A stretch of DNA of 64,000 bases, the filler included, from Jimgerdemannia flammicorona (Eukaryota), in assembly GCA_003990765.1 (NCBI GenBank). It is 3 parts of 3 records of this genome, joined end to end, with 100 filler letters (N's around TTAATTAATTAA, not from the genome) between each part and the next. Parts side by side here need not be neighbours in the genome. Positions count along the whole stretch, not along the records: positions 21,481 to 42,850 come from RBNJ01001467.1; 2 more parts are not named here. One strand, 5' to 3'. The notes under the pieces were generated by a model that worked only from the letters and a program-made list of their open reading frames with translations, did not search any database and had not been told where the DNA came from. This document shows positions 20,001 to 59,661 of this stretch, piece after piece. How positions within the stretch are numbered: position 1 is the first letter of the stretch; each line of letters opens with the position of its first letter. Both the position numbers and the translations under genes were made by a program.

Positions 20001-20498
20001 GGAACCCAAGACCAATCTCCAGAATACTACTGATTTAGTTCAGAAATATGATTCCTTAAACAACTGAAACCCAAACACTCCCACATCTATCAGTTCATAC
20101 TATATATTATATCTCCTGAATATTATAATTATCATGAACCAAATCAAGAACTCAGCAAGTCAAGACAAAAGAATACTGACCTTCTAGAAAATTAGCAAAA
20201 CTAAAAGCCAGCCTATTCTCCCTATACTACTGGTGGGAAATAAGGTATAGACATTTAAGAAGATTCCTTAGAGAAAATTCTCCAGCAGTGAATGATGTCA
20301 GAATCACTTCTGGTGCATGGTATCAAACACATAACCCTTTAACATATGAATCTAATACATTAGACAACTGTACTATGAGCATACCACTTTCTGAGAAAAA
20401 TAGACTTTACTGGACTTTTGACCTTCCAAATGGTGTAACAACACTAGAACAAATTAGAAGGTCCTGATGAGGACATTGAAAGCTAAGAAGGGAAGAGT

Positions 20499-21365
20499 TG
20501 TAAGTACACAACCCCCAAGTCACCAAAATCACATATTACCCTCTGAACAAGCCACTGAAATCACATGCAACCTCTGAATAAATCTGGAAATCATCTGCAA
20601 GATCATAAAGCTAAGTCAAACCAAAGTCAGTATACAAAGCTGAGTCAATATGAAGTCATAGAACACAAGATTTACATAAACAGAATCTTACCAATCAGGA
20701 CCAAATGCATATACCAAGTACTAAGATACATCGAAACAGAGAACCAAAACAAATAACAACTACAACTTCTGAATATACACAAACATGATTACTAAGATCT
20801 ATAACTGCATCTATGCTGATATTTGGAATACCATTGTTAACTGAGCAATACCTCCTCTACCCCTTATAAATATCTATAGTCTAGTACCCCTCTACTTCAT
20901 GGAAGCCCAATAGAATGCTCTGAACATGCTTAGTGAGTCTTACTGAATTGGACAAATCTCAAGCTACTATCAGATTGGCTGTCTCTTAGAAGACATAGTT
21001 GAATATCACCATAATACAGATATTACCCAGATGTCTTAATACCAGAAACTCATTACCTGTAAACACAGAGAACTCTTCTACAAGTACAGCACCTTTATTC
21101 CCCACCTCCAAGTCACTACTGCTGAAATGGTTGCTACCCTATCCTATGGCCAAATCGATGACATAATACAGGAACTCAACCATAAGTACCTCAAGTACAT
21201 TGAAACTACAGACAGAACCTTTCCACACCCCAATGACCATATTCTGCAAATACCTCAAGTCAGATATGCCATAAAGAATATCTATGATATAATCTAATTT
21301 GATGAAGATGAAGTAGAAGACAATAATCCCTCTGATACTGACATGACCTCTAGCCAAGAATCTCT
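20499..21365 (+). repeat. 3' LTR of copy C (truncated)
   Basis: Starts TGTAAG right after the PPT and matches the other family A LTRs. Confidence 0.9.
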
Positions 21366-22816: not shown

Positions 22817-25800
22817 TCACTTGGTCCGATACACGCTCATAATTTCATCGGCCCACGGAGGTATCTCAACCTCCAACGCAGCCTTTGTCCCAATCCTCAA
22901 CCACATCTGCTCGGTCTCGTCCTGATCCTCGATACCCTTCATCCCACCCTGGGCCTCGACAATACACTTTCCCCACCCGCGCCTATTCCGGTTCAGCAAC
23001 GCGTCGATCTCAACTTTGAGCCTCGGGTTCTGCATCTGTCCAAACTGAGCAATCTTCAGCGACGTGATCGTCTGGTTATGATCCCTGAGCGCGTCTCTGA
23101 GTGCTTGAATCCCCGCGACGGGGATGCCGTTATGCGCGAGATCGATGGCGCGGAGAACGGAATTCCCCGGGAGCCATTCCTGGGCAATATAGAGGGCGCC
23201 CTCCTCGCCAATGAAATTGGACAGCCCACCGAGGAGGAGGGTCGCGCGAGTGAAGCCGAGGGTGACGAACTGGAGAGCCGGGTGGTTTCGGAGGGCGTCG
23301 ACGAGGTGGCGGCATCCAGTGGGGCCGATGCAGTTGGACCCGAGACCGAGATGAGTGAGCTTTGTGTCGTTGGCGAGGCCACGGGAGAGCTCGATGATAC
23401 CCTCGTCGCCGAGACGGCAGCAGGAGAGGTAGAGGCAACGGAGGTTGCTGGTGCCGGGCTCGAGGTGATGTCGGAGGACGGTTGCGGAGTGAATGGTGAG
23501 CCCGTTAGAGTCGATGTAGATGTTTCGGAGGGTCTTGTTGCGTTTCAGAGCGTTGAAGATGGTCTCCACCCCTTCGTCCAGAATACCCGTATTTAGGACG
23601 TCGAGTGTCTCGAGCGTTGTGTTCGTCTCGAGCATACGTGCGATGGGAATGGCGCCGGCCGGTTTGAGCGGGTTCCGCTTGAACCAGAGTGACTTGACCT
23701 TCGTGTTGAAGGCGAGCGCATCACAGATAACGGCAATAGCGTCGGCACCAAAGTTATTTCCGGCGATATACCACGTATCAAGCTTGCTATCTGGATCGCG
23801 CATATATTGTGCGATCTGCTCAGCACCCACATCGCCGACGATATTGTTCCCAAGTAACAGCCTCCTGATATGACTATTTTTCATAGCATTCAGCAGCGGC
23901 GTAATTCCGCCCGGTCCGACGGCTTGCTTACACATATCGAGCCTACCGTCGGGCGTAATGGTCCCGATCATAAATGTTACGTTCTTATCGGTCGGCAATG
24001 TCCCAGCATCACCCATATACCGCAGCAACGGATCGAGCTCCTCAAGCAGGCACGGCACGATGGGCATGGGTTCCGGGTTGAGTATCCAGTCGCTTGGTGG
24101 GGCAGCGAGCATCTCCTTCCGCTCAACCTCAGAGAAGAAAGCAGACCTGTCCTTGCGGCGATTGAGCTCCAGCTGGCGATTATAGTACCGCGCCGAAGTA
24201 CGATCAAGGAGCCTGCATAGCCTGGACACCAGCTTCGTGAACGCGCTGTAGCAGATCTGCTTCCGGAGCTTGTCGTCGCGCACAGCCGGGTTCACTTCTG
24301 CGAGCGGATATAGCAGAAGCGCGACCTCCTTGGCAAGCCTGCACCGTTTGTCAACCCCGGACCGGATGCGCGGAACGCCCAAGGCACAGGTGCTCGGGTA
24401 TAGGAGCTCGCCTTCGGTGGTATGGTGCATTGCATCGTCGTGCTCGAACGAGTCGACGAGTGTGCGGTCCTTGGTAAGCTGCGCCACGAACGCGGCGACA
24501 ATGGCGCGGTGCAATACATCACATTTGTCAGTACCGACCTTGTCTATGGCAAACTCGTCCTCGTGGATCTTGCGGTTCAGAACCGCCAGCTTGCCCAGCT
24601 CCTTCCACGACCCGTAGGTCGTTATGAACTGCAGTGTGCCCATCACGAGCTCCGGCTGGAACGCAAGGTATATGCGCATCCACACTCGAAAGAACAGTTC
24701 AGTGGGTTCTTCATCTTGGAATCTAGTGCGGGTCGCGAATGCCACCAGTACCAGATCGTCGACCACGGCGCGGGCGTTCCTCCCTGAAGATGATTTAGCG
24801 TCTTCGATGAACCGCGTGATAACCGCCTCATCCTCGAACATCTCGGCTCTGACCACGGGAGGATACTCGACGAGCCCATGGAAAGCCTCGTGCCTCGCAA
24901 CAACCGTGCGCATCGACGCCGACATTCCGATCGGGTACATGACGAGCTCGGGGACCTTGGGCTTCTGCGACCCAGTCCTAACGACAGCACTGGCCCTCTT
25001 TCGATAATGCTCGACGGATACAGCAAGCTTAGCCTCCAACCCTTGAAACTCCGTCTCCCTATCAATGTCAAAATCCGAATCGACGATGGCTTGAGCCATG
25101 ACGAACTTGGCCATGCGATCGACCGGCCACTTGGCAGGGGTGAAGTGACCGCCCGAATGGGAGATGGTGACGCCAGTCCCGTCAGCGAAGAGTGCGGCAA
25201 GGGCGCGAGTCTTGGCTTCCATCTCGACGGGGGTGCCGAGGTGCTCGTCCTGCAGGCCGTAGATGTGAAGCGTGGCGGTGTTCTGGATGGTGTTGGGCCG
25301 CGTGAGGTCTCGATGGGCGTCGGCACGGGAGGGGAAGCCTGAAATACAGATGCCGAAGCGGAAGGAGATGTTGTTGTGCGGTTGGAGGGCGGCGAGGAGG
25401 CCGATGAGGGTGGCACCCTGTGAAAAAGATTTAAGATGGTGCCATTTAGTATGTGGATGACTATCAAGATGCATGAAACCTAAAAGACATATATAATTAC
25501 CTGGCTAAACCCAATAATCCCATCAAACCTCTCCTCCTTGAACGCCTGATCGATATATCTCATGGTGACATCCATCCCGCCATATACCTTGCCATCATCG
25601 CTGGCGCTATACCACTGCCGCTGGTGGTTCATGGCCTGCTTCCACGTCGGATGCTCCACACCCGTCACGCCGTCGGGCGTGCTGCCAACGGTGTAGGCGT
25701 GCGGTGCGTTCAGGTAGGTGAAGGCGGCGTGACCCTCAAGCTGGCGCTCGAGCGGGCGGAGGGCGCGGCGGATGATGTGGGCGTTTTGGCGGAAACTGCG

Positions 25801-26852
25801 TTTGGGGGAGGAGAGGTATCAGTCGCAATGTTATTTAAAATTATATGCACGATGGATTGGCAACGGTTACATACCCATGCAGCGCTAAGATCTTCATGGG
25901 TCGTGTCTTGGGCCCGTTGTCACGGGCCTTCTTAAACTTGGGATTATTGGTGGCGCCGTGTTGCGAAGCTTGGTCCGGCCCGCGCTCCTGCACGGAGCGC
26001 ATGAAGGCAAAGCGGTGAGAGGCGAGAAACTCTCGCTCCTCGGAGGTCGATTCGCGACCGAGGAGCTGATTACGGTGCGGATAGCGGCCGAAGGCTTGGG
26101 ATTTAGGATGGGGCTTGTGAGTGAAATGTTTTGATGACAAGGGATGCTTGAGAAGGTTTTGAAAAAGAAGATATACCTTCAATCATGTCCAGATGCTGCT
26201 TGGCCGACCGATGCTGTGTGGAATACCTCCTCTCGGCTGGATATCTTTCCGCTAGCTCGCCAAACAGCTCGACAGATCTCGTGACGAAAGCGCGATCTTC
26301 AGCATGCTCGAGACAGTAGTAGAGAAAAAGCTTCTGTGGAGGCGAGTACATCGTGACGTGTTGTGGGTCGTCGAGGACGGCGAGGGCTATTTCGAGCGCC
26401 AGTGTGTCGAACGCGAACATGCGCGAGGAGCCGCGGTAAATGTTACGCGAGAACTGATCCATGAGGAGGATGAGGCAGAGGCGGCCAGCGGGAGAGGTCA
26501 TCCAGCGAGAGAGGATGTGTGGCTCCAAGAGGGAGTCGCTCTTGAGGGTGGACTCGACCTCGAGGAGCAAAGGCTCGAAGTGCTCCTTAATATGACTGTC
26601 GACCGCGGGGGTGCCAGAGAACCAGACACGGGTCGGGAGCTGGTATTGGGGCGACCAGTGGTTGTCGGCGGGGCCAAACCAGTAGGTGAGGATGGATTGG
26701 ATATGGACGCGGTCAGATTCGGTCAATTGCTTGTCCTCCTCCTGCGGGAGGAGGATGTATTGGCGGGGGGTGGGGGGGAGCAGGTCACCGCGGCCGTCCC
26801 GGGATGGGGGGAGGACGACGGCGATTTTAGTTGTTACAGGCGAAGGGTCCAT
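22817..26852 (-). CDS. Multidomain protein (~1263 aa): DUF924 + FSH1-like serine hydrolase + DUF2828/TROVE-like segment + RNI-like LRRs
   Basis: Exons 26852-26177, 26094-25875, 25795-25501 and 25417-22817 join via GT-AG introns into 3792 nt in frame. Motifs: LMDQFSRNIYRG / LEHAED / FGRYPHRN (DUF924); KILALHGFRQN / GFSQG / HSGGH (FSH1); YGSWKEL...FVAQLTKD (DUF2828-like); DGRLDMCKQ followed by LxLxxNxIG repeats. Confidence 0.85.
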
Positions 26853-27192
26853 TTGTTGGTTGGCAAAAGAAAGCAGGCAGTTGTGGTTGAGAAGAGGGCT
26901 TATTTAATTCATGATGTGATATTTATGCACCCAGAGCCGAATCACGCCAAAAGCCGCTCGCTGGTGAGTCACGAAACCGCAGCAAAAGAATATGGTCACG
27001 TGCTTCCCCTCACGAACACTTCGTAATACTGTATAGTTGTCTGTTTGACAATTATAAAATTCTGTACAAATCACATCACACTGTAGTCGCTCCCTAGCCG
27101 GACCAAAAAATCTCCAGCACCTCCATCTATCCACCTCCAACTTTCCTCACACCAAAAACCTAACATGCACCTACCGCCACATCCCCCCCCAC

Positions 27193-27961
27193 CTAATCAT
27201 CAAACTCAAGCTCTACCTCCTCAACGAGGTATCCTCCCACAGGTCCCTGCTCCTCCTCAGCTCTCGGCTCCTCCACCTCCTCTGCTTCGAGAACGTACTC
27301 CTCCTCGTGAACGACAGCCTCCTCCTGCTGTACGACCATGGTTTCGCGCTTGTCCTTCTCCACTACCATCGCCTCGCCCTTCTCGGCGGCTGGCACTGTC
27401 GACGACTTGGTGAGCCATTTTATGGGGTTTTTGTTGTAGACAGACCAGGAAGGGATGGTGACCTAGACGAAAAAATCATGGGGCGGCCGTTAGAACATGG
27501 TGTGAGAGCATATGATGGCGGAGAAATAGACGTAGGAGGTGTAGAGAACCATGTCGCACACGCGCGTAACACTTACAATCAAGGAGATGACGAGGCCGAC
27601 AAGGTAGAAGATTAGGGTGAGCTTGAGCGACTGCTGGAGGTATCCGACTACGAAGCCGATCGCCTAGAAAACGATCAAAGTTCCCGTGTAGCTCAGTCTT
27701 ACACGTCCTAATTAAATAGCCGTGGAGCACAGGTCTCACAACGACGTTCCATACGTACCGCGAACCCGATCAAAATGGCTTGCGTCAGGTTCTCGGAGAG
27801 CTTCTGGCCCTCAAAATCCTATTATACACGAAGATGAAGGTTTAGCATTGAAGGAAGCCATGACCTTGCCACGAAAACAAAGCTGCACACCTCCCAGAAG
27901 CCGCAAAGACACTTACAATTCTCCACTCGAACCAGTCGGCAATGGATGAGGCGGAGGACAT
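27193..27961 (-). CDS. SPC1: Signal peptidase complex subunit 1 (SPC12 family), 153 aa
   Basis: Exons 27961-27917, 27818-27759, 27663-27577 and 27462-27193 (GT-AG). Motifs DFEGQKLSE, two hydrophobic segments (GFVVGYLQQS) and IPSWSVYNKNPIKWL. Confidence 0.88.
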
Positions 27962-28502
27962 GTCGATGGTGGGATTGTGGAAAGTGAGAGGAACAAGGAT
28001 TCCGAGTGACGTGGCATAGGTAAATTTGAGGACGTGCGGCTTGGACGTGAAGCCGATGACATCATCACTTATGAAATGTATAGGATCCCTCCCAAAAAAA
28101 AAAAAAAAAAGATACTGATTAATGAGCAAAATAACGAATGTAGATTTCAACAGGTTGAATGAATGTCTCCAAAATGACAAGACAGTGGTAGAGTCGCGAT
28201 GTCCTCATCATAATTGGTCAAAAAATATTGTACAATGTACAAAAGCGATAGCGCAAACAGCCGATTTTTACGCCATCTGCATTCTTTTTTTTTTTTTCTT
28301 TTTCTTTTTTTTCTTTTTCTTTTTTTTCTTTGGGGAGTGTGTGAAGGGGGGCAAATTATTGTTTGTGATCCGGCCATTCCATCATCTACTCTCACCCCAC
28401 CTCCCACTCCCATACTAGGAAACGCAAATCCTACATGCCCAACCTCCATCTTTGCCGCACCCCAAATCCAGCAAAGATCTCATCCCAACCGACTCTCCCC
28501 CT

Positions 28503-30116
28503 CTACAAGAATCTCAATTGTGCCTGCGAGAACTTGATAGGCTGCCAGCTAAGCTTCGTCGGCTCGATACGCCTGGTGGTCTTCCTCTTATGTTTCTCAT
28601 GATCCTGCTGTATCTTATCGCTGATGGCGATGACGTGCTGCCCTTTGTAGTATCTGAGTGCGCCGATGAACTGCAGTGTGTGTAGTATGTCCTGAGTTGT
28701 AATGGCGGTCTTCTGCGAAATCTCCTCGACGGTAATCTCCTCCTGAGTGTTGAGTAGCATCTCGACGATGGTGTCGGCCCAGTAGGCGCGGTAGGAGAGT
28801 AGACCGAGGTCGGAGAGGGGCTTCTCAGGCGAGCCGACCTTGCCCTCGACCCGGGAGAGCTCATAGGAGAAGGCAATGAGGAGCTTGCCGAAGCCCATAC
28901 GCTGCCACTGTGGGAGAGTGAGGATGCAGGCGACGTTGTAGTTCTCGGAGGATTCCTTCTCCTTGGAGAAATAGCCGATGAGATGGCAGCCGACCTCGTC
29001 GCGGAGGGTCATGCAGTAGAAGAGGAAGGGATCGACATCGTAGTAGAGAGTTTTGTGGTCGAGGAAGAGCTTGGAGAGAAGGCAGAGGTTACGGCACCAG
29101 GTTTTCTGCTTGCGGCCGTCGATTTCGAAGAAGGAGATGTCCTGGTGGCGGTAGATTTCGTTGCCTGGTGGATGCTGGAGTTGGCATTTGTTGCGGTGGC
29201 GTTGCAACTGCTTCTTGGAGAGATAGTGGCTCAGACAGAACTCGCAGATGTAAATGGTGTCGGCGTGAGCGTACTCGGGCGGGTAGGGCGAGAAGTACCA
29301 GGTCTCAACCTCGTGCTTGCCGATCTGGATGCGGTTTAGGTTTTTGATGCGCGAAATCTCGTTCACGCACTGCGTCATTGAGCCCGATGTGCGCAGCTTT
29401 TCAATCTCCTTGTCCTTGGAGAACCCCGAGACGGGTCCGGGGTCCGCGGACTTCTCCGTCGACTCGTCCCCGTCGAGCATCATGTTGTCCTCCTCCCCGC
29501 TCTCTGCATCCTCCTCAACTTTCACCAGCTCCTTGCCTTCCTGGTCGGGCCCCATCGGGCTTGAGTCGCCCGCCTCCTCCTCCACGAACTTGCGTTTGTT
29601 GGGCGTTGTCGTCGGCGCGGGGCTCGCCGCCGCGTTGGGCGTGGAAGGATTGGCCGGGGATGCGGTCGAGTTCTTAGCCATGGCGGCTTTGGCCTTACGC
29701 CCCTTGGCCGCCTTCATGGGCGACTCCGGAGGCGGCGTGTCCATAGATTCCTTGCCATGGCCGAGCCCACTCTTGGTCTTTTTGGTTTTGGGGTAGACGA
29801 TCTCCATGGTTAAGTCTAGCTGGTCGACCTTCACCCACGAGTCCAAGCGTTTGTTGTACGAGACATAGTGGACGTAGTACTCGAGTTGCGTCGGATCGTC
29901 GGGCGAGACGCGCGTCATCAGAACCTCGGCCTGGAGCGGTTCCGGCAGCCTCTTGACGGTGACGACGCAACCGGGTGTCACGCTCTGGATCGTCTGGGCC
30001 TGAGGAGTCGAAATGGCGGAGGAAGCGAGGGGGGTGCCGGCACCAGAGACGGCGGGGCTGACGCTCCGCGTGCGATCCCGGCGTGCGGGTGAGCCGACGG
30101 ACAGCGTATCAGGCAT
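28503..30116 (-). CDS. ESA1: MYST-family histone acetyltransferase Esa1/Tip60 (~537 aa)
   Basis: Tudor-knot YYVHYVSYNKRLDSWV, KLRTSGSMTQ, WYFSPYP, C2HC finger, HKTLYYDVDPF, NYNVACILTLP, GSPEKPLSDLG. Start placed at MPDTLS (30116); the ORF is open further upstream. Confidence 0.95.
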   Translation of the reverse strand: MPDTLSVGSPARRDRTRSVSPAVSGAGTPLASSAISTPQAQTIQSVTPGCVVTVKRLPEPLQAEVLMTRVSPDDPTQLEYYVHYVSYNKRLDSWVKVDQLDLTMEIVYPKTKKTKSGLGHGKESMDTPPPESPMKAAKGRKAKAAMAKNSTASPANPSTPNAAASPAPTTTPNKRKFVEEEAGDSSPMGPDQEGKELVKVEEDAESGEEDNMMLDGDESTEKSADPGPVSGFSKDKEIEKLRTSGSMTQCVNEISRIKNLNRIQIGKHEVETWYFSPYPPEYAHADTIYICEFCLSHYLSKKQLQRHRNKCQLQHPPGNEIYRHQDISFFEIDGRKQKTWCRNLCLLSKLFLDHKTLYYDVDPFLFYCMTLRDEVGCHLIGYFSKEKESSENYNVACILTLPQWQRMGFGKLLIAFSYELSRVEGKVGSPEKPLSDLGLLSYRAYWADTIVEMLLNTQEEITVEEISQKTAITTQDILHTLQFIGALRYYKGQHVIAISDKIQQDHEKHKRKTTRRIEPTKLSWQPIKFSQAQLRFL

Positions 30117-30644
30117 AGGAAGTATGGGGGTGTAATTGTCCGAGATGTGGATGAGATCTAGGACATCAACAGTCAGCAATTGTGCTAAACGTATTTTTAT
30201 TTCTGAATTCCGTGCTTCAGAGCTGTGACAACAAGCAATTGGCAAGCACGTTCTTCAAGACTGGCCCAACCAACACAATCAACACACCTGCAAGTGCAAC
30301 AATGTGCGTATTATAGGGCGCTTCGTCCACAGGATTCCTTACTCAAGTATAAAAATTTGTTCAGTGGGTTTATTGGTGTATACCGAGATAGAATATGCTG
30401 GGATCTTGGCACGCCGTGGTTCAGTGCTCGGCGTAGCGAAGTGTATGGGTTTTACTGCGGTATGGCGTTCGTTTGTTGACTTTTCCTCCAAGGTGCATAC
30501 GTCACCGCCCGTCTGGTCACCTGATCAACCACAAAAATCACGCAATTTTCCTCTGCTATTACGATGAAGAGGTCAACCCAAACACGAACGTATGGTCTAA
30601 CCTGTATACAACTGACCTGGCTGGCAAGTTGGAGAGTCAGGGGC

Positions 30645-32731
30645 AGGTATGATAATAATAAGAATGCTGAAAACTAAACTTTATAATATATATATATTAT
30701 TAATTATTATAGAATCTATTATAACTAGAGTTTTATAATCTAATCTGATAATTGAGCTGACTCAGAAATTTACAAACCCAGAAAATGGTCAACTCAGAAA
30801 TCTATGAAATCTGAAACAGATTAAAAAAAAATAGCCAATTAATCTTTGAATTTAATCTTTATTTTTAAATCCAATTTATCTTAAAACTTAATTTATCTTT
30901 AAAACCTAATCTGAAATCTCTTAAGATTTAATTTATAATCTAACATAAGATCTGATCTGATCCAAAAACTGTTTTTAAAATAAAATATTTATAAAATATT
31001 TATTTATTTTAGTTTATATAAAAATATTCTCATATTATAATAGTAGTTAATAGCTTAGAAGAAATTAGATCTAAAGAGTTCTGAGATCTCCAACCTATTC
31101 TCTTCTTTTATCTTATCTTCTTTATTATTTAGATAATCTATTTTATCTTAGCTCTCTACTATATACTCTTATCTCTTAATACTAACTATATATATATAGA
31201 CTGAATCTCTTATAATTTATATTTAAAGATATTTTCTTTTTAAATTTATATATATATTAGACTTCTGGAGTCTAGTCAGAAATATTAAAGTAACTTAAAT
31301 ATTATTATTAAAAACTTAGAAAAATATATATAGAGGAGACTTCTTATATTTTATAATAAACTAAGAGTTAATTTATTTTAATACAATTACTAGAGTATTT
31401 ATATATATTAGTTAAATAATAGTTTATATATTTTAGCTAACTAATTTGATATATAACTACTCTATTTACTCTTTAGGCAAATATGCTATTTATATTCAGA
31501 ACAAATAGACTATTTGTTTTTAGAACAAATGATTTATTAGTTAGATAATATAACTAAATATTATTTATATTATTATTATTCCAAATGTTTAGAAAGTTTA
31601 GTATATTATTTTTTATATCTTATTTATATTTTTTTGATCTTTTTATATATTACACATTTATAATATTATTGCTAAGTCATATGATTACTATTTATAGTAT
31701 ATATATTATTATACTTATTTACTATATAATTCTTATTATATTCTTTTCTCTTTAGAAATTAATATCTTTATTAATTTTTATACTACTTATTTAAAGTTAA
31801 ATATTAGTAGAAATATATCATTCTTATTCTTATTATCAGCATTATTATAGTTACTAGATAAATCTATAGATATATATCAATATTCAGTATAGAAAATTAA
31901 TAAAATCTATAAATAGTTCTTACTAGTCTAAGACTGTCTAAAATAGAGTTAGAGATTTTTATCTAATATAGTTAAGGCTATCTATATAGAGAACTTAGTC
32001 TTCATTCTTTATTATATTTATTTGAATAAATAGTTCTTCAAAAAGATTAGAGAGGTCTTAAATCTATTGGTCAGAGTTGTTATTTAGAATAAAGCTTCAA
32101 TAGGATTTATAGTTTTGGTTTTAAAAGAGATCTAGAAGTAAGCTTCAGTGATTACTCTTGACTTAAGTTTATCAATCTTAAGAAAGAAGAGATTCTGAAA
32201 GTTTATTATTTATATAAAGTTAAGATTGAGAATAATGTAGAGAGTATGCTAGAAAACTTGATAAATTTTCTTATAATTTACTCAATAGAGAGTTCTTTAT
32301 AATATTGATAGATATAATGACTAATTTTATACTTATACTAGATTTTTAAATAGCTAATAAACTAATAGACTCTTTTAATAATTTTATAATAGTTGAGAAT
32401 AAAATATCTCAGATTCTAACTAGTGAGGTTAAGAGTCTTAAAGAGATAATTCCTTTCTTATAGTAATCTTAATATATGATCAAAAAGTTACTCTATATTA
32501 TTTAGAAAAGACTGGCTTTAGTAAACTATCTGATAGAGATAGGAGAATTAAAGGAGTATCTTTGTAGATTTTTTAAGAGATGATATTTATTACTTATCTT
32601 TTTATCTAGTATTTATATTTTTTTTCTAGTTAGTATTTTGTAGTAGTTATGACTGCTCTCTGCTTCAGTCTTATTATTATATATAACTGTTTATTTTATT
32701 CTATTTTTGAACAAATAACCTACTTATATAA
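30645..32731. other. Extremely AT-rich decayed repeat/transposon-derived DNA, unclassified
   Basis: Sharp compositional switch at ~30650 with almost no CpG. No motif could be recovered by eye. Confidence 0.45.
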
Positions 32732-33234
32732 TGTAATATAGTGGATGCTAAGATGGGCAAGTATGTTGGATTTCTTTATCTTGAATTCTTGTCTTCTTGA
32801 CTCTCAGAGTTAGTAGTTCCTTGAGGCCAAATATGTTTAAAGAGGTAATCCAAAGGTCCTTTTATCAGTATACTTGTTCTTTTTCTAATACTTTTCGATC
32901 TGAGGTTTATTCACTCTAAGATACTGGGTTATTTATATAAGTTTGCTAGCTATGAGAGGGTGGCTAAGTAATAAATAAGTCATTTGGACTTTGTTGAAAT
33001 ATTTGGTCAATGTCTAAATACTATACTAAATCAGGACATTCGATTTAGATAATGTCTAAGAATTTAGACAATGTCTAAGAATTTAGACAATGTCGAAATT
33101 AAGGACTACTAACTATAAGGCTATACTACTTTGGAACTGGGTGCGATCAAGTGTCTATTCCCTATTTCCTTCTTCCAAATTTGGTTATACCATCACAACT
33201 TCCTCCTGAATAGATGGTCTCATCCCTGAGGCAT

Positions 33235-33696
33235 CTATTCAAACTCCCAGGCTTCAACCATCTGTATGGTCTTGTACTATATAATTTGCTGCATGACTAT
33301 TTCCCAATGATGTCTTCTCACTTTCTCGAAGTTTGTGGGGGTTACTCCTCTCAGGTGGTCTATTGCTGGTTCATCTTCTTAGAATAACTTGTGGATCCTT
33401 TTGGCAATAGTGATCTGTGAGTGGGAGAGTTGACACTCGGCAATCCAGTCCTCTTTGGTCTTTACTAGATCCTGATTGAGCACCTGTCCAAGCTTGAAGT
33501 ACTCTTGGAATTCTGCCTGATATTGATAGGCTCTAAAGTGCGAGATCTGAGAGAGATGAGTCTGCACAATACTCTGAATATCATCATAGTATGCTTCTAT
33601 AGTCAGAGGCTTAGTGGTGTGCCATTGTCTTTTGATGGCTCTTTGGGCAGCACTAGTGATCTTGAGTACCATTGTGGTACTTCGGTTATTGGCCAT
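33235..33696 (-). pseudogene. Accessory ORF-X of family E (~153 aa, two C->T stops)
   Basis: MANNRSTT...EYFKLGQVL...SHSQITIAKRIHKLF*EDEPAIDHLRGVTPTNF...WEFE, located between the integrase and the PPT. A decayed homologue is at ~40290-40746. Confidence 0.7.
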
Positions 33697-36600
33697 GGTA
33701 CTTCTTGAGTTGGTTTTGATAAATGGTGGTAGGGATTATTGTGCCTGAGGGCTTTCATAGCCAGAAAGTAGTCCCTTTTATATCTTGTACCAGATAAGGT
33801 CCTTCCTACTTGGGCTCCAGTTTTCATGACCAAGAAGCTTCTACTATGTTCTGATATACTAGGACTTCATCTCCTATCTTGATAATCTCCAGGGGCTTGT
33901 GGGTTTTTTCTGCATTATTCCATTGTAGTGCCTGCACCTTGATTATATAATTCTCTGCCTTTTTCCTTATTTGATGCAATCTCCATATCTCTGTATCCAC
34001 ATGCTTCCAGATTGCGTCATTAGTTACTGACAAACTTCTACCAGAATCTTCTTCACTGAATAGTATTTCTCATGGTATAAAATGGGTGCTTTGTGATCAT
34101 ATATCCCACAGAGTGGATAATGCTATTGGTAGATAGTGGTCCCAGTTTCCATATTCATTACAGATCTTGGTAATGATATTCTTGAGGGTCTTATTGGTTC
34201 TTTCTGCTTGTCTATTTCCTTATAGGTAATAGGCTGTGGTCTTGATGTATTGGATCTTGTACTTCTTGTAAAGAACCTCATGGAACTGGTTGATGAATTC
34301 TGTTCCTCTGTCTGTAGTAACTTGCTTTGAGGTCTTGAATTGGCAGATGATTTCTCTGTGAAAGAAATTGGCAATTGACTATGCATTGGCTTCCTTGAGG
34401 GGTCCGGCCTCTATCCATTTTGTAAATAGATCCACTATTATAATGACATATCAGTTACCAGTTAATGTCAGGGGTAGAGGGCCAATTACATCCATTGCAA
34501 TGTGGGCAAATGGTATTGGTTTGATGTCTGCTGATCCAGGGGCTTGATCCCATCAGTCTTGTTTCTGTTTCTGGTATTTATCACAGGTCCTGACAAATTG
34601 TCTGATATCTTCTTCCATTCTGGGCCACCAAATAGTTCTTCTCACTTTGTCATATGTATTTGTTCCTCCTACATAACCCTGTTCATGTACTTCTTTCATT
34701 ACTTGATTCTTCCACAGCTCAGAGATGACTAATTGTTGTCCTTTCTTGAGTATTTCTCCATCAGTTTCGAATTGTTTCCATGTCCAATTAATAATTGTTT
34801 TTGTCCATTCTTTCAGATGTGGGGGCATCTTTCGCTGCCCCAGATAGCTGATGATTCTGTAGTACAGCTCCTTATTTATAGTGATTTTGTGGAGGTGAGA
34901 TCCTTCAGGGTGTCCATGAGAGGGTGTCGGCATTGGTGTTGGTTCTTTCAGGGTGGTGGGTGATTGTGGCATTGTATGCCTGCAGCTTCATGATCCATCG
35001 AGCATAGATTCCTTTGGGCTTGCTGGTAGTGAGCAACCAGGTGAGTGCTGAGTGATCTGTCTGGATAGTGAAGTGTCTTCTAGCCAGGTAGTAGTGGAAC
35101 TTCTCTACAGCCCAGATAACTGCAAGGCATTCCAGCTTATAAGACTCATAGGACTGCTCTGCCCTACAAGTACCTTGGCTGAGATAGGCTACTACAAATT
35201 TGGTACCATTTTTCTTTTGTGCAAGGACAGCTCCAAGTCCCATTGCACTGGCATCTGTTTGCAGAATAAACTCCTGAGTCTAGTCCAGTCTTCTCAAGAT
35301 TGGGGTCTGGGTTAATCTGGTCTTGAGCTCATAAAGGCTAGTTGCTGCTGCTGAGTCCACTGGAACTTAACCTCTTTTCTGAATAGATTATAGATAGGGC
35401 TGGTGATGTGGGAGAATCCTCTAATAAATCTTCTATAGTAGGATGTAAGTCCCATGAAGGCTTGGGCTTCCATAATACTGGTAGGTACTAGGTATGCTGC
35501 CACTGCCTTGATCTTTGTGGGGTCTGTGTGTGTTCCTTTACAGTTGATAATATGTCTGAGGTATGCGATCTCTTCTTCTCCAAACTTGCATTTCTTGGGC
35601 TTGATGTAGAGGCTATGTTTGTGAAGCCTTCTGAGGATTTCCTCAATATGTTCCAAGTACTCCTTGGCTGTTCGGCTGAAGATGACCATATCATCTATAT
35701 ATACCATCATCCATTTTTCCATAACATCTCTGAAGATGCTGTTTATCATTTACTGGAAGCTTACTGGTGCATTGTACATTCCAAAGGGCATGCAGAGATA
35801 GACATAGGTTCCATCAGGGGTGATGAAGGCTGATCTTTTGCTGGCTTCTGGTGTAAGGCCAATTTGGTAGAATCCTGAGAACAGATTCAAGGTGGTGTAG
35901 AATCGTGATTCATTCTCCAGCATGATGAGAATATCGCCAATATTTGGCAATGGTTGTCTGTCCTTCTCTGTGACCTTGTTGAGTCTTCTATAGTCTGTGC
36001 AGAGTCTTGATATAAATTCTCCTGGTTGGCTTCCTTTCTTTGGTGTAAGGACAATGGGGGAGAACCAAGGACTGTTGGCTTCTTTAATGATACCGGATTC
36101 CTCCATTTCCTTGATCTCTGTCTTGAGCCATTCTCTGTATGCTGGTGGAATGGGGTGGGCCTTCTGATAGATTGGCTTTGCATTTCCAGTATTGATATCA
36201 TGATAATACAAAGGTTTCTTGGTTTTGATGTCCTTGAAATCTATGGCCAGTATATCCTCGAATGTATGCAAGAGGCTCTGCAATTCTTCTCTAAGGGGAA
36301 AGTTTCTTCCAATTGTATAGGTGTGTTTGTCTTGGCTTTCCTCCTTCTTGTGCTCCAATTCGGTGATCTTAGTTGCTGCAAGGACTCCTCTTCCTATAGA
36401 GCTGAATCCAGCTCTCCCTCACTGAGTTTGTCTGATGTTTGTGACCTCCTTGATTCTTGGATTAAGGACAGGTAGGATGAGCATTTGTGCCAGCCGATCC
36501 TTCTTCCTTACTTCAAATGGGATTGTTGGGTTGTGGTTTCTGGTGAGGAGAAGGATTTCTCCAGTATAATCTGAATCAATGACTCCTCCTTCTATAGATA

Positions 36601-38842
36601 TTTCGCTTTTTGCCAGGCTACTCCTTGTCTTGAGGATTCCAACATGGTTTGGTGGGATGGTTACTTCAATTCCTGTTCCTAGAATGGTAGTGGTCTGTGG
36701 TTCGAGTATTGTATGTATAGTAGTAGATAGGTCCATTCCAGCTGCATTCTCTGACTTATACTGTAGTATAACTACATCAGGGTGAATCCTTTGTATCTTG
36801 ACTGTAATATCATCACTGTCATCCAATAACTCTGGTGGTCCATCTTCTAGTTCCTCCTGGTTCTTCTTTGGCTTGTTGGTAATCTTTTTTACCTCAATGA
36901 TACAAGAGTAGCAACGATCCAAGTGCTGGGCACAGTACATTCTTTCACCATGGGGGCACCTTCTTAGTGGGGCATATCCATCTGTGATTCTTGTATACTA
37001 TTCTTCCTCTGTCAATTGCTTGCCTTTTTCTTTCTTTGTAGTAACTATGTAGGCTTCTTCTTCTTGGTCTTCCTCTATCTTGGGGTGGACTCCTTTGTGG
37101 ACATTGATGGGAATTCTGATCTTCTTTCCCTAGTAGACAATCTGTATCTTCTGTGCACTGAGGTCAATCATTGCCTTGGCTTTATGAAGCCATTGATTGC
37201 TGATGAGGATATCATAGTTGGTTGCATTGGTGATGATGATATCCATGGAGATAGTGGCCTCTCTGAACTTGATTAGTATGTCTCAAATCTTTCCCAAGGA
37301 TGTTGCTCATATTCCATCAGCTGTGACAAATACCAGTTTGGTGGCTTCTTCTATCTCCCAGCCTAGGCGGTCTACTGCTTTCTTGGTGATGAGACATCCT
37401 CCTACTCCCATATCAATAATGGCTTCAAAGACTTGATCCTCGATCTGGCAGATAGTATAGACTGATGTTTTCTGATTATCTTCACTCTCTTCATCTGAAT
37501 CTTCTTGTGCATTATTGGCTTTGATTATTTTCCAACCTTGGTCTTTGCCGATATCTGAGATTCCTATTCTCATTTGTTGTCTGAAGGTTGGGATTTCTGC
37601 TAGTTAGCCGAAGGTTGTATTGACCTTTTGGTCCTTGAGGTCCTTGAAGATATCATACTTGAAGGTCTTGCTCTTACACAATTTCTGCTCCTTCTTTCCT
37701 TCACTTGATGGGGTGGTGTTTCTGATGATATCTTCTACTGCTCGTTCAAGTTCAGCATCTTGTTCCAGCTCCATATCTTGATCAGCTTCGCTCTGCTGGT
37801 TCTCTTTTTCGATGACTGTTTCTGGTTGTCTTGTTTGTGTCTAGGCCTTCTTAGGAGGTCTGCCTGGAGGTCTTTTGTAGGGACTGGATCAGACATCCTT
37901 CTTGCTTGAGATGGCAGGGTAAGCTTCTCATTCCTCCCTCTCTTCCTCAGATTCTTCAATCTCCTCAAAGGTGATAGTGTTTGCCTGCTTGCATTTTCTG
38001 GTTGCATTGCTTGGATTGGCCTTTCGCTTGGTTTCTATCATATATTCGGAGGCATAGTGGCCTTCTTCTTTACAGTTGTAGCATATTATTGATTGTCTTG
38101 TATTTGTAGTGGTAAACTTCTATACTGGCTTCTTCTTGAACTCTTTGACTATGTCACTGAGGTGTACAGTCATTTCTGTGAACTGTTTGGCCAGTTCCTC
38201 CATTGGGTCAACCTTTCTCTGTTCTTGTGGTTGTTATTGAGTATTTTGGTTGACTATGGTAGCTGGGACTGTATTGGTGACCCTTGGTGCTTGCTCAATT
38301 TTTACTCTTGTTATCCTTTCTATTGTATGGCCTTGAGGGTGTCTGGCAGTCCAGTATCTTTGGGCATAGGTAACCTTCTGACCCAGGTCTAGAGCCATTG
38401 GGGTAGATCAGATAGCTAAAGCGATTTCTTGATGAATGCCTTTCATGAAGATATTCTTGGCCACTTGGTCTTGAACTGCATCAGGGTAGTCAGCAAGAAC
38501 TATTTGATGTCAGATTCTTATATAGAATGTGTTTGGGTCTTCAGACATTCCTTAGTAGATAGTATTCAGTTGATCCTTGAGTGCTTGTTTGATTTCATCT
38601 GTGTAATAGGTTGCTTGGAGCCAGGCCTTAAAAGCTAGGAGTCTTGCTGGATCATCATTTCCCACAATATTAGCTGCAGTGAATGCAGTTCTCACTGGAC
38701 CTCTTAGGCTTACAGAGAGTAGGGCTACTTATTGTGTTGTACTTAAAATTCTTATGGCAGCATACTGCTTGAAATCATCAATGAAGATGATGATTAATTC
38801 ATTAGAGGTGTATCCATAGAATATGGGTGGTCTTATATCCAT
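33603..38842 (-). pseudogene. gag-PR-dUTPase-RT-RH-IN of family E
   Basis: Knuckle CYNCKEEGHY at ~38050-38090, PR AIIDxGxGGC, dUTPase AAGMDLS / GGVIDSDYTGEI / RLAQML (~36400-36800), RT MPFGMYNAP / YIDDMVIF, RH LECLAVIWAV / TDHSAL, IN zinc-finger and core. No chromodomain seen. Confidence 0.9.
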
Positions 38843-39260
38843 TTTGTCTGATTGTGTTAAGTGGGTTCTTATTGCGGTTATTCATTGATCAGCTTGAAAG
38901 TGAGGGATTTGTCTTGAATCACCAGCCAATGGGCACCAAGTTGTAACATAGTGGATGCTAAGATGAGCAAGTATGTCAGATTTCTTTATCTTGAATTCTT
39001 GTCTTCTTGACTCCCAGAGTTGGTAGTTCCTTGAGGCCAAATGTGTTTAAAGAGGTAATCCGAAGGTCCTTTTATCAGTATACTTGTTCTTTTTCTAACA
39101 CTTTTTGATCTGAGGTTTATTCACTCTAAGATACTGGATTATTTATACAAGTTTGCTAGCTATGAGAGGGTGGCTAAGTAATAAATGAGTCATTTGGACT
39201 TTGTTGAAATATTTGGTCAATGTCTAAATGCTATACTAAATTGGGATATTCAATTTGGAT

Positions 39261-39360
39261 AATGTCTAAGAATTTAGACAATGTCTAAGAATTTAGACAA
39301 TGTCTAAGAATTTAGACAATGTCTAAGAATTTAGACAATATCTAAGAATTTAGACAATGT
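39261..39360. repeat. 19-bp tandem repeat AATGTCTAAGAATTTAGAC x5 in the family E 5' LTR (x2 at 33051-33092)
   Basis: Read directly. The 57-bp length difference between the LTRs equals three units. Confidence 0.95.
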
Positions 39361-41044
39361 TGAAATTGAGGACTGCTAACTATAAGGCTATACTACTTTG
39401 GGACTGGGTGCGATCAAGTGTCTATTCTCTATTTCCTTCTTCCAAATTTGGTTGTACCGTCACAATAAGTATATATATTACTACTCAGAATGAATTAAAT
39501 CAAATTAAATTTAATTTAAATAGTTTAAATCAAAATAAGAGTTAATTTAATTTGAATCAATTCAAATTGAGATATAATTTGATTTAATTCGAGTTTAATT
39601 TGATTTAAACAAATCAAATTAAATCACAATTTAATTTAAATTAAATTAAATTCAAAATTTGAAACTAAATATAATAATTAAAAATATATATAATATAACT
39701 TACAATAATATATATATACTCTCTTAAAGTAATTATATTAATTATATTACTACTATCTATTGTAATATAGTAAATATGTAACTGAGTAAATATGTCAGAT
39801 TTTTATATCTTAAAAACTTGATCTTCTTTAACTTTATAGAGTTCTCAGAATATAGGAGTGGGTAAGTTCAAAGTATATCTACTCACAGACTTACTAGTTC
39901 TCTTATTTCTTCTTTGCTTTGAAGTATTTCAATCTGAGGTTTATTTACTCTAGATACTGGAAATATTTATATAAGTTTACTAGCTATAAGATGGTTAAGT
40001 TATGACTATATTTCCTATGAATTACTTTTCACAAGTATTAATTTTTGATATCTATTAAATCTTTGATGATCATCAAGATTTAATATCTATAAAATCTCAA
40101 CATTTGTAAAAATATTAATATTTATCAAAACTTTAACATTTGTAAAATAACTGCTATTTATAAGACTATACTATATTTGAGAATTGGATTCAGATACTAT
40201 AATCAAATATCTATTCTTCAGATTTATATTACTAATTTAGATTAACTGTTATAACTTTCTCCTAAATAGATAATTTATCTCTGAAATATCTTATTCACTT
40301 GAACTCCCAAGCTTCCACCAATTGTATCTTTTTATATTATATGATTTATATCATTATATTCACCCAATAGTATCTCTAAAGTCTCCTGGAACTACTCTTT
40401 AGAAATAAGCTAAAGCTGGCTCATTATCTTTGAACAACTTGTTAATCTGTTTAGTGATAGTAATTTGAGTATAAGAGAGTTAACACTCTCTAATCCAATC
40501 TTCTTTTTCTATCTCTGGCTATAAGTTTAGTAACTGTTCTAACTTGAAGTATTCTTGAAACTCAGTCCAGTTCTAGTAGATCTTAAAATATGAAATTTAT
40601 GACAAGTATATCTGTACTATGCTCTGAATACTATCAAAGGATTTCTTTATTATAGGTGGCTCAGTAGTATACCATTGTCTTTTTATAACTTATTGTATAG
40701 TGCTAGTGATCTTGAGGACTGTGGCAGTACTCTATTAATTAATCATAATACTTCTTGAGTTAGTTTTGATAAATAGTAGTAGAGATGATTGTATCTGAGA
40801 GTTTTTATAGCCAAAAGGTGGTTTCTTTTATATATATCTTATATAAGATAAGGTTCTTTCTACTTAGGTTCTAGCCTTTGTAACTATGAAGCTTCTACTA
40901 TATTTCAATATACTAGAACTTTATCTTCTATCTTAATAATCTCCAGAGGCTTGTAAATCTTTTCCACATTATTCTATTATAATATCTATGCCTTGGTTAT
41001 ATAATTCTTGATCTTCTTTCTAATTTAGTATAGTCTCTATATCT

Positions 41045-42563
41045 TGTAACAGTGACCCCAGAATGATGACATCAGCACAGGAGACAGCCTTTCTTTACAA
41101 GCCACCAGATCAGAGTACAAGAAAATCATACAGCATATGAGATGAGCAATAATGACCAACTGTGAGTCATTGTGACCACAGCACAAGCATCCTGAAGAAT
41201 ATAAAAGAAGGATCAAGGAACTGTAGTAGCAGCAACCAACAAGAACCACTAATCCCAAAATAGCTCAAAGACTTACCACAAACAAAATGTCTGCTGCCCA
41301 TCAAACCTCAAGGTCAAGAAATCACCAAGGTATCTCAGTCAAGGAAAGGATGTTCCAAGACATCAGAAGAGCCATGAGGACCCACTTAAGAAGGACTCCT
41401 AGTATCAACCTGGATACTGCAGACCCTTATCACTTCATTCTCTATCACTGTGAAATGGAAACAAGGATCACTATTGCTACCAAATACCTCCAAATGTGGC
41501 AGGAGTATGAAATAGAAAACCTCCTCTGCCAGGAGTTCCCACAAGCCAGCACCCAAGAGCTATAAGATGCCACTCCCATAGATATATGTGAAACAAGGAC
41601 AGCTAAGAAGATCCATCAGATCTTCAGACATGCACTATGGTCGATCCCCAACTTGGAGTATGTTAGAGTCTCAGACTTCAGAGACCTATCATCCTGCCAT
41701 ATCAATGCACTAGAAGCCAGGGTGGCTACAGAAACTTGGTCCACTATCACCCTCAACAGTGAAGAAGTAGAAGACTTCTGGCACCCTATCCTTCAGGACA
41801 ACCCAGACCAATTCCTGCAAGGATTGATCTCAGTATTCTAAGGCCCAAGCATCCAGGTTAGACCTCCCGAAGACCCCACATTTGTTCCCTATTTTGTGGA
41901 AGAGAACCTCATAGACTGAAGAGCTCCAGATCTTGTTCCTGATTTTCCCGCCACAGCTGAATGTGATGACATCATCAGTAATGACGTCATTCCATGCAAC
42001 ATCAACATATGCAAGATACATAATAAAGTATGCAAAAATGACAAATTCACGGATCTCATCTCCTTCAGTGATGATGATGACAAGGATGAAGCTCCCATAG
42101 TCCTGAACTTTCTGCTCTAAGTTCTGTGTTATACTGGATAATGCCAGCACCGGTATTCTGAGGTGATACGAAATTGTTCCAGCACCAGTATTTTGATATG
42201 ACACTAAATAATGCCAGCATCCTGAACCTGTACAACCATCAGTACCAACTCTGGAACTTAGTAGTTTTAGTTATTGGAATTTATATTTAGCTTTATATCT
42301 TAGCAACAATTGAATTATATTTTGTATAAATACCCCTCTTATTTTCTCTGAAATAAAGTCAGTTCCTTTCAGTGCAATATATACACTTCCTTGCAAGCAA
42401 TCTAAGAGATAACAAGACAGTTAAAGATAAGAAGTTTGAGGACTATAAGACCTTGGGAAGGCACTCCAATAAGAACTTGCTTATAACAACTTGAGTTAGT
42501 CTAAGAGATACACCTTGAAGAAAATCTGGCGTATTTGAAGGACTCAGCAACCACTATGTGACA
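41045..42563 (+). mobile_element. Solo LTR of a third family (F), 1519 bp, carrying an ORF
   Basis: TGTAAC...GTGACA ends with a 4-bp TSD ATCT. TATAAATACCCC at ~42325 and AATAAA at ~42352. Host sequence resumes on the far side. Confidence 0.85.
41287..42120 (+). pseudogene. Accessory ORF-X homologue inside LTR F
   Basis: ORFs 41287-41565 and 41653-41841 share one frame, which can be extended to 42120 through C->T-type stops. Contains YEIENLL...TAKKIHQIF...IPNLEYVRVSDFRDLS. Confidence 0.65.
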
Positions 42564-42850
42564 ATCTCTATATTTATGTATTTCCATATAGCATAATTAT
42601 TGAATAATAGAGTTCCTTGAGAACTTTTTTCTCTGAACAGCATTTTCTGAGAGATAAAATGGGTACTTTGTGATCAAATATCTCAGAGAGTAGATAATAC
42701 TATTGACAGATAGTGATCTCTGTTTTCATAGTTATTACAGATCTTAGCAATAATATTCTTGAGTATTTTATTAGTTCTTTCTACTTATCTATTTCTCTAA
42801 GAGTAATAGGCTATAGTCTGAATATATCAGATTTTGTACTTCTTGTAGAA

Positions 42851-52973: not shown

Positions 52974-53135
52974 TAATGCTCCAAACAAGTCAGTATAATT
53001 TGAATCTGATTTGAATCCAGTCACATGGAATTCAAATCAGATTCGAATCAATTCAAATCAATTCAAATCAAATTCAAATTGGATCCTAATTTGGAAAAAA
53101 TAATAATTAACCAAAACAATCAACATAAATTGCCT

Positions 53136-56655: not shown

Positions 56656-59661
<3,006 letters not shown>

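Follow-up and report, generated by a model that had tools for sequence, protein, structure and literature searches.

In mouse mammary tumour virus (MMTV) the sag gene is a sense open reading frame (ORF) placed inside the unique 3′ region (U3) of the long terminal repeat (LTR), hence in both LTRs, and its product, Sag, is a vertebrate retroviral membrane glycoprotein. The Botrytis element Boty is said to carry an antisense gene, and we know of no ORF inside the U3 of a fungal retrotransposon. Extra ORFs as such are an already known kind of gene in LTR retrotransposons, among them CERV, the ORF3 modules, env-like genes and an 'add. ORF'. CERV, from the Ty3/gypsy element Cer1 of Caenorhabditis elegans, is the product of a spliced mRNA and is needed for export of the genomic RNA (PMC10309623). 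Bdelloid rotifers have ORF3 modules common to several retroelement types (PMC5408684), and the chromodomain of chromoviruses is a C-terminal integrase extension that directs integration (PMC2864245). The 'add. ORF' is drawn in some fungal Gypsy chromoviruses, in a set that includes dUTPase-bearing ones (PMC2864245). Here we analyse a gene of this general kind, ORF-X, in a stretch of 64,000 nucleotides from Jimgerdemannia flammicorona (assembly GCA_003990765.1), referred to as the window. The copy at 33235-33696, in the Ty3/gypsy element that we call E, is very probably a dead copy of a real accessory gene borne by retroelements; related copies are carried by the chromovirus family A, by the solo LTR F and by G, a fragmentary E-like element (Table 1).

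ORF-X shares part of its features with each of the described systems. The A and F copies are like sag in lying inside U3, which the E copy does not, and the protein differs from Sag in being a predicted all-helical soluble product of LTR retrotransposons that has no match in Pfam, retroviral families included. The position after pol and ahead of the 3′ LTR, as in CERV, holds for the E copy, and CERV is, in the account given of it, lineage-restricted and without known homologues, as is ORF-X (PMC10309623). The two are set apart by description: CERV has 517 amino acids (aa), five spliced exons sharing Gag sequence and a shown role in export (PMC10309623), whereas ORF-X has 150-370 aa and its own start codon, and can be LTR-internal or Pol-fused. 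The sharing of ORF3s among rotifer elements points, like that of ORF-X, to modular gene sharing (PMC5408684). However, the rotifer modules are recognisable as GDSL esterase, DEDDy exonuclease or fusion glycoprotein (PMC5408684), while ORF-X matches no known family. With the chromodomain the likeness lies in the C-terminal position, since in contig L001, described below, ORF-X is a further Pol C-terminus past SH3 and chromodomain, and the E copy starts where pol ends; the difference is that ORF-X is not a Chromo domain, that A and F hold it as a gene of its own past the polypurine tract (PPT), and that targeting would be only a putative role for it. The 'add. ORF', named in a figure legend, may overlap with ORF-X (PMC2864245). 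Full-text literature searches brought up no account of an ORF-X family, a point on which the supplementary tables of PMC2864245 may bear.

Element E has the gene order gag(CCHC)-PR-dUTPase-RT-RNaseH-IN, where PR, RT and IN stand for protease, reverse transcriptase and integrase; its LTRs are 84% alike, end in TG..CA and are flanked by TTAT on either side. The ATG of its ORF-X, at 33696 in the context ACCATGG, opens a frame that overlaps the last 11 nt of pol in a different register (pol stop 33688-33686) and closes with the stop codon at 33237-33235, directly after the C-terminal residues EAWEFE. From there 27 nt lead to the PPT, AGGAGGAAG at 33207-33199, and the 3′ LTR begins at 33197. The possibility that ORF-X was simply the end of pol was ruled out by the other frame and by its own conserved start, and an env-like identity was dropped because Pfam gave no match. 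Family A, a Tf2-type chromovirus, is ordered gag-dUTPase-PR-RT-RNaseH-IN-SH3-Chromo, and the domain orders of the two Pols bear out the earlier statement that, of the two, only A is a chromovirus. ORF-X covers 365 codons in each of the five LTR copies of A, at LTR nt 241-1338 of 2023; the copies are indel-free relative to each other and have 3 to 8 internal stops. The F copy consists of two halves, the N-terminal one being the shared domain and the C-terminal one strongly acidic.

That these frames belong together was examined against databases and shuffled sequences. For the E ORF, a word-indexed search of 5.8 billion proteins gave 11 relatives, which are 59-75% identical to it; for the F ORF it gave six, and for the A ORF two. 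Among them are an open 153-aa E homologue, P0006, which is 75% identical and also ends in EAWEFE; the F relatives P0017 and P0018, 68-80% identical, of which P0018 runs over 271 aa from MPAAR... to ...LNFLL; P0005, which corresponds to residues 1-128 of the A ORF with identical start; and P0004, an open 247-aa C-terminal part of the A ORF, 62% identical and with a matching end. Together the open homologues span 59-84% identity. All database relatives are metagenome proteins on short contigs, and their openness is biased evidence, since gene callers output open frames only.

Direct comparisons of E, A and F, taken singly, are marginal. BLASTP joined E and A at E=0.001 over 54 residues and E and F at 0.096, and found no match of A with F in the corresponding region; hhalign with alignments of two to six rows gave E = 0.095-0.18. 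When the database relatives were added, E-F reached 1.1e-5 over 104 columns (probability 82%) and E+F against A 5.8e-4, with E-A at 0.094 and A-F at 0.19. In 11 profile-versus-sequence tests with 3000 shuffles each, five were reached by no shuffle, three by 1-3 shuffles and three were not significant. The decisive evidence came from an exhaustive HMMER search with the joint E+F+A alignment of all of 1.84 billion representative proteins, which returned 16 proteins at E<=1e-3, nine of them in or near the E, F and A families and seven new and divergent (P0027-30, P0032-34); compared pairwise with E, F and A, these seven scored just -2 to 40 bits. A profile built from these seven members only recognises the A relative P0005 at 60.7 bits, the E relatives P0006 and P0008 at 74.8 and 61.2 bits, and the F-type P0018, P0024 and P0026 at 52.8, 55.4 and 31.2 bits; for each of the six targets, 0 of 3000 shuffles reached the score and the highest shuffle gave at most 16 bits. 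The seven had been chosen with a profile including A, E and F, a choice that could favour composites, but a profile free of A would not give 60 bits on A unless its members were like A. Single-family profiles beat all 1000 shuffles on seven of seven new members for E, six of seven for F and three of seven for A, the A profile being reached by one and three shuffles on two of the remaining members and not significant on the other two. P0027 and P0032 are matched by all three single-family profiles, and P0033 by the A and E profiles only. On the strength of the seven-member profile and its shuffles, the E, A and F ORFs are, as judged from sequence, one protein family of which A is the most divergent branch.

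A hidden Markov model (HMM) profile made from database proteins only, run on the six-frame translation of the window, recovered the five A copies, E, G, F and the F-type relic at 32117-32272 with E<=5e-5; the four remaining window rows scored below 0 bits. The copies reach 70-234 bits (E 151.6), apart from the relic at 11.7. The joint alignment is colinear over ~130 residues, with the motifs [YF][YFE]x[ILM]Gxx[LI], Ax[RK][IV][YH]x[LIV]F and PxA[IL]x[HN]L..V(T/S)..(F/W)..LS in alignments of 16-28 sequences. The database relatives carry the A-x-R/K-I-Y-x-L/I-F motif, which the original prediction had tentatively linked to uncharacterised Glomeromycota proteins; in A the second motif deviates (ARKHRELF), and F105 is the sole nearly invariant column. 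A and F have two segments that are absent from E, and the spacing from PxxN to IG, 40 residues, is identical. The peptide strings of E, A and F quoted in the original prediction are present in the sequence where it put them, the decayed E-type copy that it placed in G was located, the single family that it proposed is upheld by the seven-member profile, and the dissimilarity of the LTR DNAs agrees with the lack of any mutual blastn similarity among those of E, A and F. Two further likenesses, the C-terminal motif YF[IV][RE][DE]N.ID common to A and F (BLASTP E=0.14) and DIIHF/DLISF, were dropped, not being mutually colinear.

Searches for known relatives gave no convincing match. Neither the window ORFs nor 14 database members, 17 proteins in all, matched a Pfam family at the cut-offs of E<=10 or E<=1, except for two chance-level hits, to MHC_I_2 (E=0.019) and TBK1_ULD (E=0.018), and the best sequence-profile hit in PDB was an unrelated mitoribosomal protein at E=0.055. 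Viral contigs contained no relative among 62 and 242 pattern matches when compared with the E and F alignments. In ESM Atlas, P0005 and P0006 fell near bacterial or phage clusters (0.93-0.95, 145-173 shared features), which was taken as uninformative.

In E, A, F and L001, ORF-X is the last sense ORF of the genomic RNA of the element, so that the sense orientation and 3′-terminal place described earlier were found again. The PPT, and hence the border of the LTR, comes after ORF-X in E and before it in A and F. In the A1 LTR, TATAAATACCCC (TATA) at nt 1528 and AATAAA at nt 1661 lie downstream of ORF-X, and the gene is assigned to U3 because both signals come after it; in F, the ORF extends to LTR nt 1075 and is followed by TATAAATACCCC (TATA) at nt 1280 (42325) and by AATAAA at 42352. 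The LTR of E has the core motif TATATAAATAACCC and then AATAAA, as the A and F LTRs do. The comparison with retroviral nef or sag made in the original prediction is thus appropriate, in its sag-like form, for A and F, whereas in E the gene is instead a post-pol accessory gene. Spread by solo LTRs, also put forward there, is not a mechanism, the solo copy F being a dead remnant with three stops. As a separate observation, the core TATAAATA(C/A)CCC is common to the three LTR families that lack blastn similarity, at nt 1528 of the A1 LTR (~1330), nt 1280 of F (42325) and nt 261 of E (~32937), with AATAAA 27-28 nt beyond it in E and F and 133 nt in A.

A third arrangement was met in the database. 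P0040, a longer cluster mate of one of the new members, begins with a chromodomain, and its contig, L001 (2776 nt), reads in a single frame from an rve core through SH3 and Chromo into a linker of ~70 residues, behind which comes the ORF-X domain. This frame ends in TAA directly before AGAGAAGGG (PPT) and an LTR starting TGTAAG, which is followed by the primer-binding-site (PBS)-like ACTTGGTAGCAGCGG. Over 385 residues, the integrase-chromodomain regions of L001 and A are 42% identical (E=1e-101); for comparison, the A and E integrases are 25% identical and their RT regions ~26-40% alike. In the L001 Pol the Pfam Chromo match covers residues 327-380, and in the A2 Pol residues 2003-2051; both lie upstream of ORF-X, within which Pfam finds no Chromo match. 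Hence ORF-X is found in three arrangements: fused to Pol upstream of the PPT (L001), upstream of the PPT and overlapping the pol stop (E), and downstream of it in the U3 of both LTRs (A, F). Within related chromoviruses, as their sequences read, the domain is either the Pol C-terminus upstream of the PPT (L001) or a separate LTR gene downstream of it (A). The linker of L001 retains MPRNNNTSRHQ, which is similar to the MPxxR with which free-standing proteins start and suggests a recent fusion or a read-through. The LTR of L001 (1890-2566) contains six tandem 22-bp units with the PBS-like sequence directly after. L001 joins a pol 3′ end, one LTR and a 5′ leader; either the assembly would have collapsed two LTRs into one, or the form would be tandem or circular.

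The A3 element of the sister family has in its LTRs ~760 bp of unrelated sequence at the site of ORF-X, of which only the last ~20 codons are left. Because A3 has lost it, ORF-X is dispensable in cis.

The original prediction had made purifying selection within families a condition of its reading, and the comparison of the A4 copy with the two A1 copies agrees with it: the ratio of nonsynonymous to synonymous substitutions (dN/dS) is 0.21-0.23 in frame and 0.75-1.18 in shifted frames, with 52/26/78 differences at codon positions 1/2/3. Between E and G, the proportions of nonsynonymous and synonymous differences are pN 0.22 and pS 0.87 in frame, the shifted frames giving 0.70 and 1.27 and the codon positions 43/28/66. 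The two LTRs of A1 (835-2857 and 9372-11397), which have diverged since insertion only, show dN/dS 0.33, shifted frames 0.66-0.76 and codon positions 47/27/51, and in their ORF region 122 transitions stand against 3 transversions. Because such mutation bias lowers the neutral value, the evidence for selection is the contrast with the shifted frames and with the LTR pair. We take these sequence comparisons to mean that purifying selection acted during the active phase of the lineages and that decay similar to repeat-induced point mutation (RIP) came afterwards. The transition excess, together with a 2.4-kb block at 30.3-32.7 kb with a GC content of 28%, points to repeat decay that is RIP-like or deamination-driven. 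Two findings go beyond the original prediction, namely that all copies in the window are pseudogenes and that the domain can be part of Pol.

AlphaFold modelling of P0006 gave a mean predicted local distance difference test (pLDDT) of 54.5 with 15 E+F rows; 28 rows drawn from all groups raised it to 89.3, with a predicted TM-score (pTM) of 0.81. Seven helices make up this model (2-22, 40-75, 81-88, 92-105, 109-114, 120-125, 128-151), with YFKLGQIL at the end of the long second helix and AKRIHKLF as the fourth helix. In the structure prediction, named beforehand as a check, the joint alignment yields a confident model, and Foldseek against PDB gave no row below E=1.0. VIA-align against 48,161 chains reached at best Z 4.5 and nowhere Z 5 or more. 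Its weak rows with helix-turn-helix (HTH) proteins, a TetR regulator at Z 4.5, the VirB core at 3.3 and sigma-F region 4 at 3.0 (rmsd, root-mean-square deviation, 2.4 Å over 48 residues), are within the noise of helical models, and neither the Pfam scan nor the PDB sequence profile indicated an HTH family. An HTH-like character of helices 60-105 is therefore, on the model, only a possibility. In BFVD the best row was a phage DUF3102 protein (probability 0.87, 126 columns at 19% identity, TM 0.43 relative to the query); at E=0.56 this is not significant, Pfam DUF3102 matches 0 of the 17 proteins, and it may serve as a lead only.

The P0006 homodimer model scored 0.48, against 0.19 for the best of three controls. 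The mark that it passes is reached, on microbial proteins, by 21 of 30 proteins solved as same-chain pairs and by 0 of 23 single chains; on eukaryotic proteins by 17 of 29 pairs, but by just one of the seven pairs that lack an older solved relative, and by 0 of 30 single chains. At least 77% of contacts agree between runs, which have a partner pLDDT of at least 62 and place at the interface an antiparallel pairing of helix 40-76, which contains the most conserved motif YFKLGQIL. The modelling thus supports self-association of ORF-X. Beyond the core, tails are acidic in eight of nine members with a tail of at least 9 residues, with aromatic and aliphatic residues embedded; the five F-type proteins carry a net charge of -20 to -33 there, and three tails of 9-32 residues have -8, -6 and -3. 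The E-family tail is almost nil (EFE). Some family members have Arg-rich N-termini, such as MPPIRRWRNPRG and MPAARQTSRSRNHQG.

Taking the gene and the model together, the best explanation overall, to which we give somewhat under an even chance, is that 33235-33696 is a dead accessory gene that encoded a dimeric nuclear factor acting with the integrase or the LTR. A nuclear factor is favoured because of the C-terminal position behind integrase, seen once, the start at the pol stop of E, the predicted dimer and the acidic tail. C-terminal additions to integrase are the usual place of targeting modules, and ORF-X could be a module of this sort, for tethering or targeting, in the manner of other C-terminal extensions of integrase. 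As a mechanism, a dimeric nuclear factor working with integrase, or on LTR DNA or chromatin, is possible though doubtful. Where it is apart from pol, the transcript for ORF-X would be subgenomic or LTR-internal. Behind a 5-kb gag-pol frame a free-standing ORF-X could be translated from a spliced subgenomic RNA, from an LTR-internal transcript or, in E, by a +1 frameshift into 13 open codons ahead of the ATG. Several points weigh against the nuclear factor. Only a single lineage, with two database sequences, shows the Pol fusion, L001 has a stop inside the integrase core and could be a decayed read-through, and the genomic context of the six other divergent members lies beyond contigs of ~1 kb. 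With a net charge of -6 to +2 the core is not basic, unlike a strong DNA binder, and it has no structural match to HTH or other known function (Foldseek E=1.0; VIA Z 4.5; BFVD E=0.56); the 138-residue tail of P0027 is nearly neutral (net -3, 18 K+R); and the dimer result comes from an alignment-free model of moderate pLDDT, 62-68. The gene itself is known in the window from pseudogenes only, and its neutral control, the LTR pair, also has a dN/dS of 0.33, from strong transition bias.

Other functions for the same gene fare less well. That ORF-X was a transactivator of its own LTR, in the role of foamy-virus Tas or Tax of human T-cell leukaemia virus (HTLV), with the core binding U3 as a dimer and the tail recruiting the transcription machinery, is unlikely. 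It would account for the acidic tails with embedded F, W, L and I in most tailed members, for the homodimer model, for the core motif common to the three LTR families and for a gene at the 3′ end or in U3, as in retroviral regulators; the consecutive helices 60-75, 81-88 and 92-105 do superpose on sigma-F region 4, at only Z 3.0. However, no match to a DNA-binding family, in fold or sequence, is significant, the core is not basic, the E-family proteins are nearly tailless, and an in-frame integrase fusion is unexpected for a transcription factor. A factor for RNA export or packaging like Rev or CERV, multimerising on unspliced genomic RNA for its exit from the nucleus, would agree with the position of the E gene, which is that of CERV, with the Arg-rich N-termini and with the self-association model, but it would be superfluous if the ORF is expressed without splicing and fits poorly with the Pol fusion of L001, and we regard it as quite improbable. 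An antagonist of host genome defence (RNA interference, heterochromatin, RIP or methylation), supplied in trans by any carrier LTR, is about as improbable: the heavy mutation of repeats in this genome, as in the 122 transitions against 3 transversions of one LTR pair, the accessory status of a gene absent from A3 and its fast evolution between families (1-40 bits pairwise) would all suit it, whereas no resemblance of ORF-X to known suppressors was found and all copies in the window were mutated to death anyway.

We also considered that ORF-X behaves as a movable cassette, in which a dimeric regulator of new fold starts as a Pol domain and, as the PPT shifts, becomes first a separate gene and next a gene carried by the LTR. 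Every LTR, solo ones included, would then be a self-contained unit made of the upstream U3, the ORF and the poly(A) signal of the LTR itself, and could supply A3-like defective elements in trans; taken as a whole, this is rather improbable. At the other extreme, there might be no shared protein but a chance likeness of helical, low-complexity ORFs, or frames that are not genes. The shallow profile comparisons (E-A 0.094, A-F 0.19), the three of 11 first-round profile-sequence tests that did no better than shuffles and the two of seven new members missed by A-only profiles speak for it. It is hardly credible in view of the 31-75 bits of the independent profile with 0 of 3000 shuffles, the 16 proteins with E<=1e-3 in a library of 1.84 billion, the pLDDT of 89.3 from the joint alignment, the excess of differences at third codon positions and the open homologues of 59-84% identity.

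LTR retrotransposons have few accessory genes, most of which lack a known function, and ORF-X is tied to at least four lineages, chromovirus and non-chromovirus. Its arrangements differ just in the location of the PPT and show a route by which coding sequence can enter an LTR. The family brings a confident model that matches no known fold, a dimer interface predicted to lie on the most conserved motif and a profile usable on fungal genomes. Should ORF-X prove to partner integrase or to regulate the LTR, it would provide a new handle on site choice or escape from silencing in fungal retroelements. The annotation of transposable elements would gain as well, as such ORFs are currently labelled hypothetical host genes.

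Table 1. Positions of ORF-X copies, of the elements that carry them and of other features of the window.
Feature	Position	Strand	Details
ORF-X pseudogene of E	33235-33696	-	153 codons; premature stops at codons 106 and 140
Element E, full-length Ty3/gypsy without chromodomain	32732-39464	-	LTRs 39464-38942 (523 bp) and 33197-32732 (466 bp)
ORF-X of G, E-type, decayed	40375-40746	-	many stops; family HMM 95.9 bits
F-type ORF-X relic	32117-32272	-	heavily AT-mutated; tblastn E=2e-7; family HMM 11.7 bits, E=5e-5
F solo LTR	41046-42563	+	1518 bp, TG..CA; inserted in G; probable 4-bp duplication ATCT
ORF-X pseudogene of F	41287-42120	+	277 codons, 3 internal stops; family HMM 233.9 bits
ORF-X pseudogene of A	62462-63559	+	365 codons, 3 internal stops; family HMM 88.5 bits
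Element A1	835-11397	-	2023-bp LTRs, ends TGTAAG...CTTACA, PPT, 5-bp duplication GTTCC
A ORF-X in A1 5′ LTR (9372-11397)	10012-11109	-	5 internal stops
A ORF-X in A1 3′ LTR (835-2857)	1520-2617	-	8 internal stops
A ORF-X in truncated A2 3′ LTR	20785-21365	+	pol with chromodomain ends ~20080
A ORF-X, first part, in A2 5′ LTR split by A1	444-835	+	
A ORF-X, second part, in the same A2 5′ LTR	11398-12111	+	
Element A3	43531-52976	+	LTR pair 43531-44967 / 51501-52976; interior 86% like A2
MYST acetyltransferase, host gene	GC-rich island, 22817-30254		583 aa; Tudor-knot, zf-MYST, MOZ_SAS; single unbroken frame
FSH1-hydrolase/LRR protein, host gene	GC-rich island, 22817-30254		895 aa
DUF924 protein, host gene	GC-rich island, 22817-30254		
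1.19-kb insertion	12877-14063	+	just after A2 5′ LTR; poly(A) run at end; ~14-bp direct duplication (TTCTTACAAGTTGG)

The nested LTR retrotransposons of the window were resolved by self-comparison. A1 is inserted inside the 5′ LTR of A2 and splits it; the PPT of A2 and the start of its 3′ LTR are at about 20490-20500. The A-family LTR that holds the copy at 62462-63559 starts at ~62204 and is cut at ~63670 by another insertion, and G extends over 39927-41048 and 42562-42847 with F inserted between. A fungal host is suggested by the Tf2-type chromoviruses, by the Gypsy elements with a dUTPase and by repeat decay that proceeds nearly always by transitions. Along the window, GC content forms islands of 53-58% (22-30 kb) and 48% (56-58 kb), with repeat DNA of 28-43% between them. 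Two ORFs at 57316-58391, on the minus strand, gave no match in the Pfam scan.

The 1.19-kb insertion looks like a non-autonomous non-LTR retroposon, and the search for a Pfam domain in three frames found none. Further copies at 60663-61845 and 63675-64000 are 81-83% alike to that at 12877-14063 and 93% to each other.

A dUTPase is encoded by both A and E, before PR in A and after PR in E; dUTPase-bearing Gypsy elements are known from basidiomycetes and Tuber (PMC2864245). In both elements it is adjoined by the Cys/His motif Y.P...CPHG...Y.....D.C[FY]SCI.E, located in the dUTPase-PR interval in A (13900-20800, plus strand) and in the PR-dUTPase interval in E (33200-38950, minus strand), which may be an unannotated zinc-binding module.

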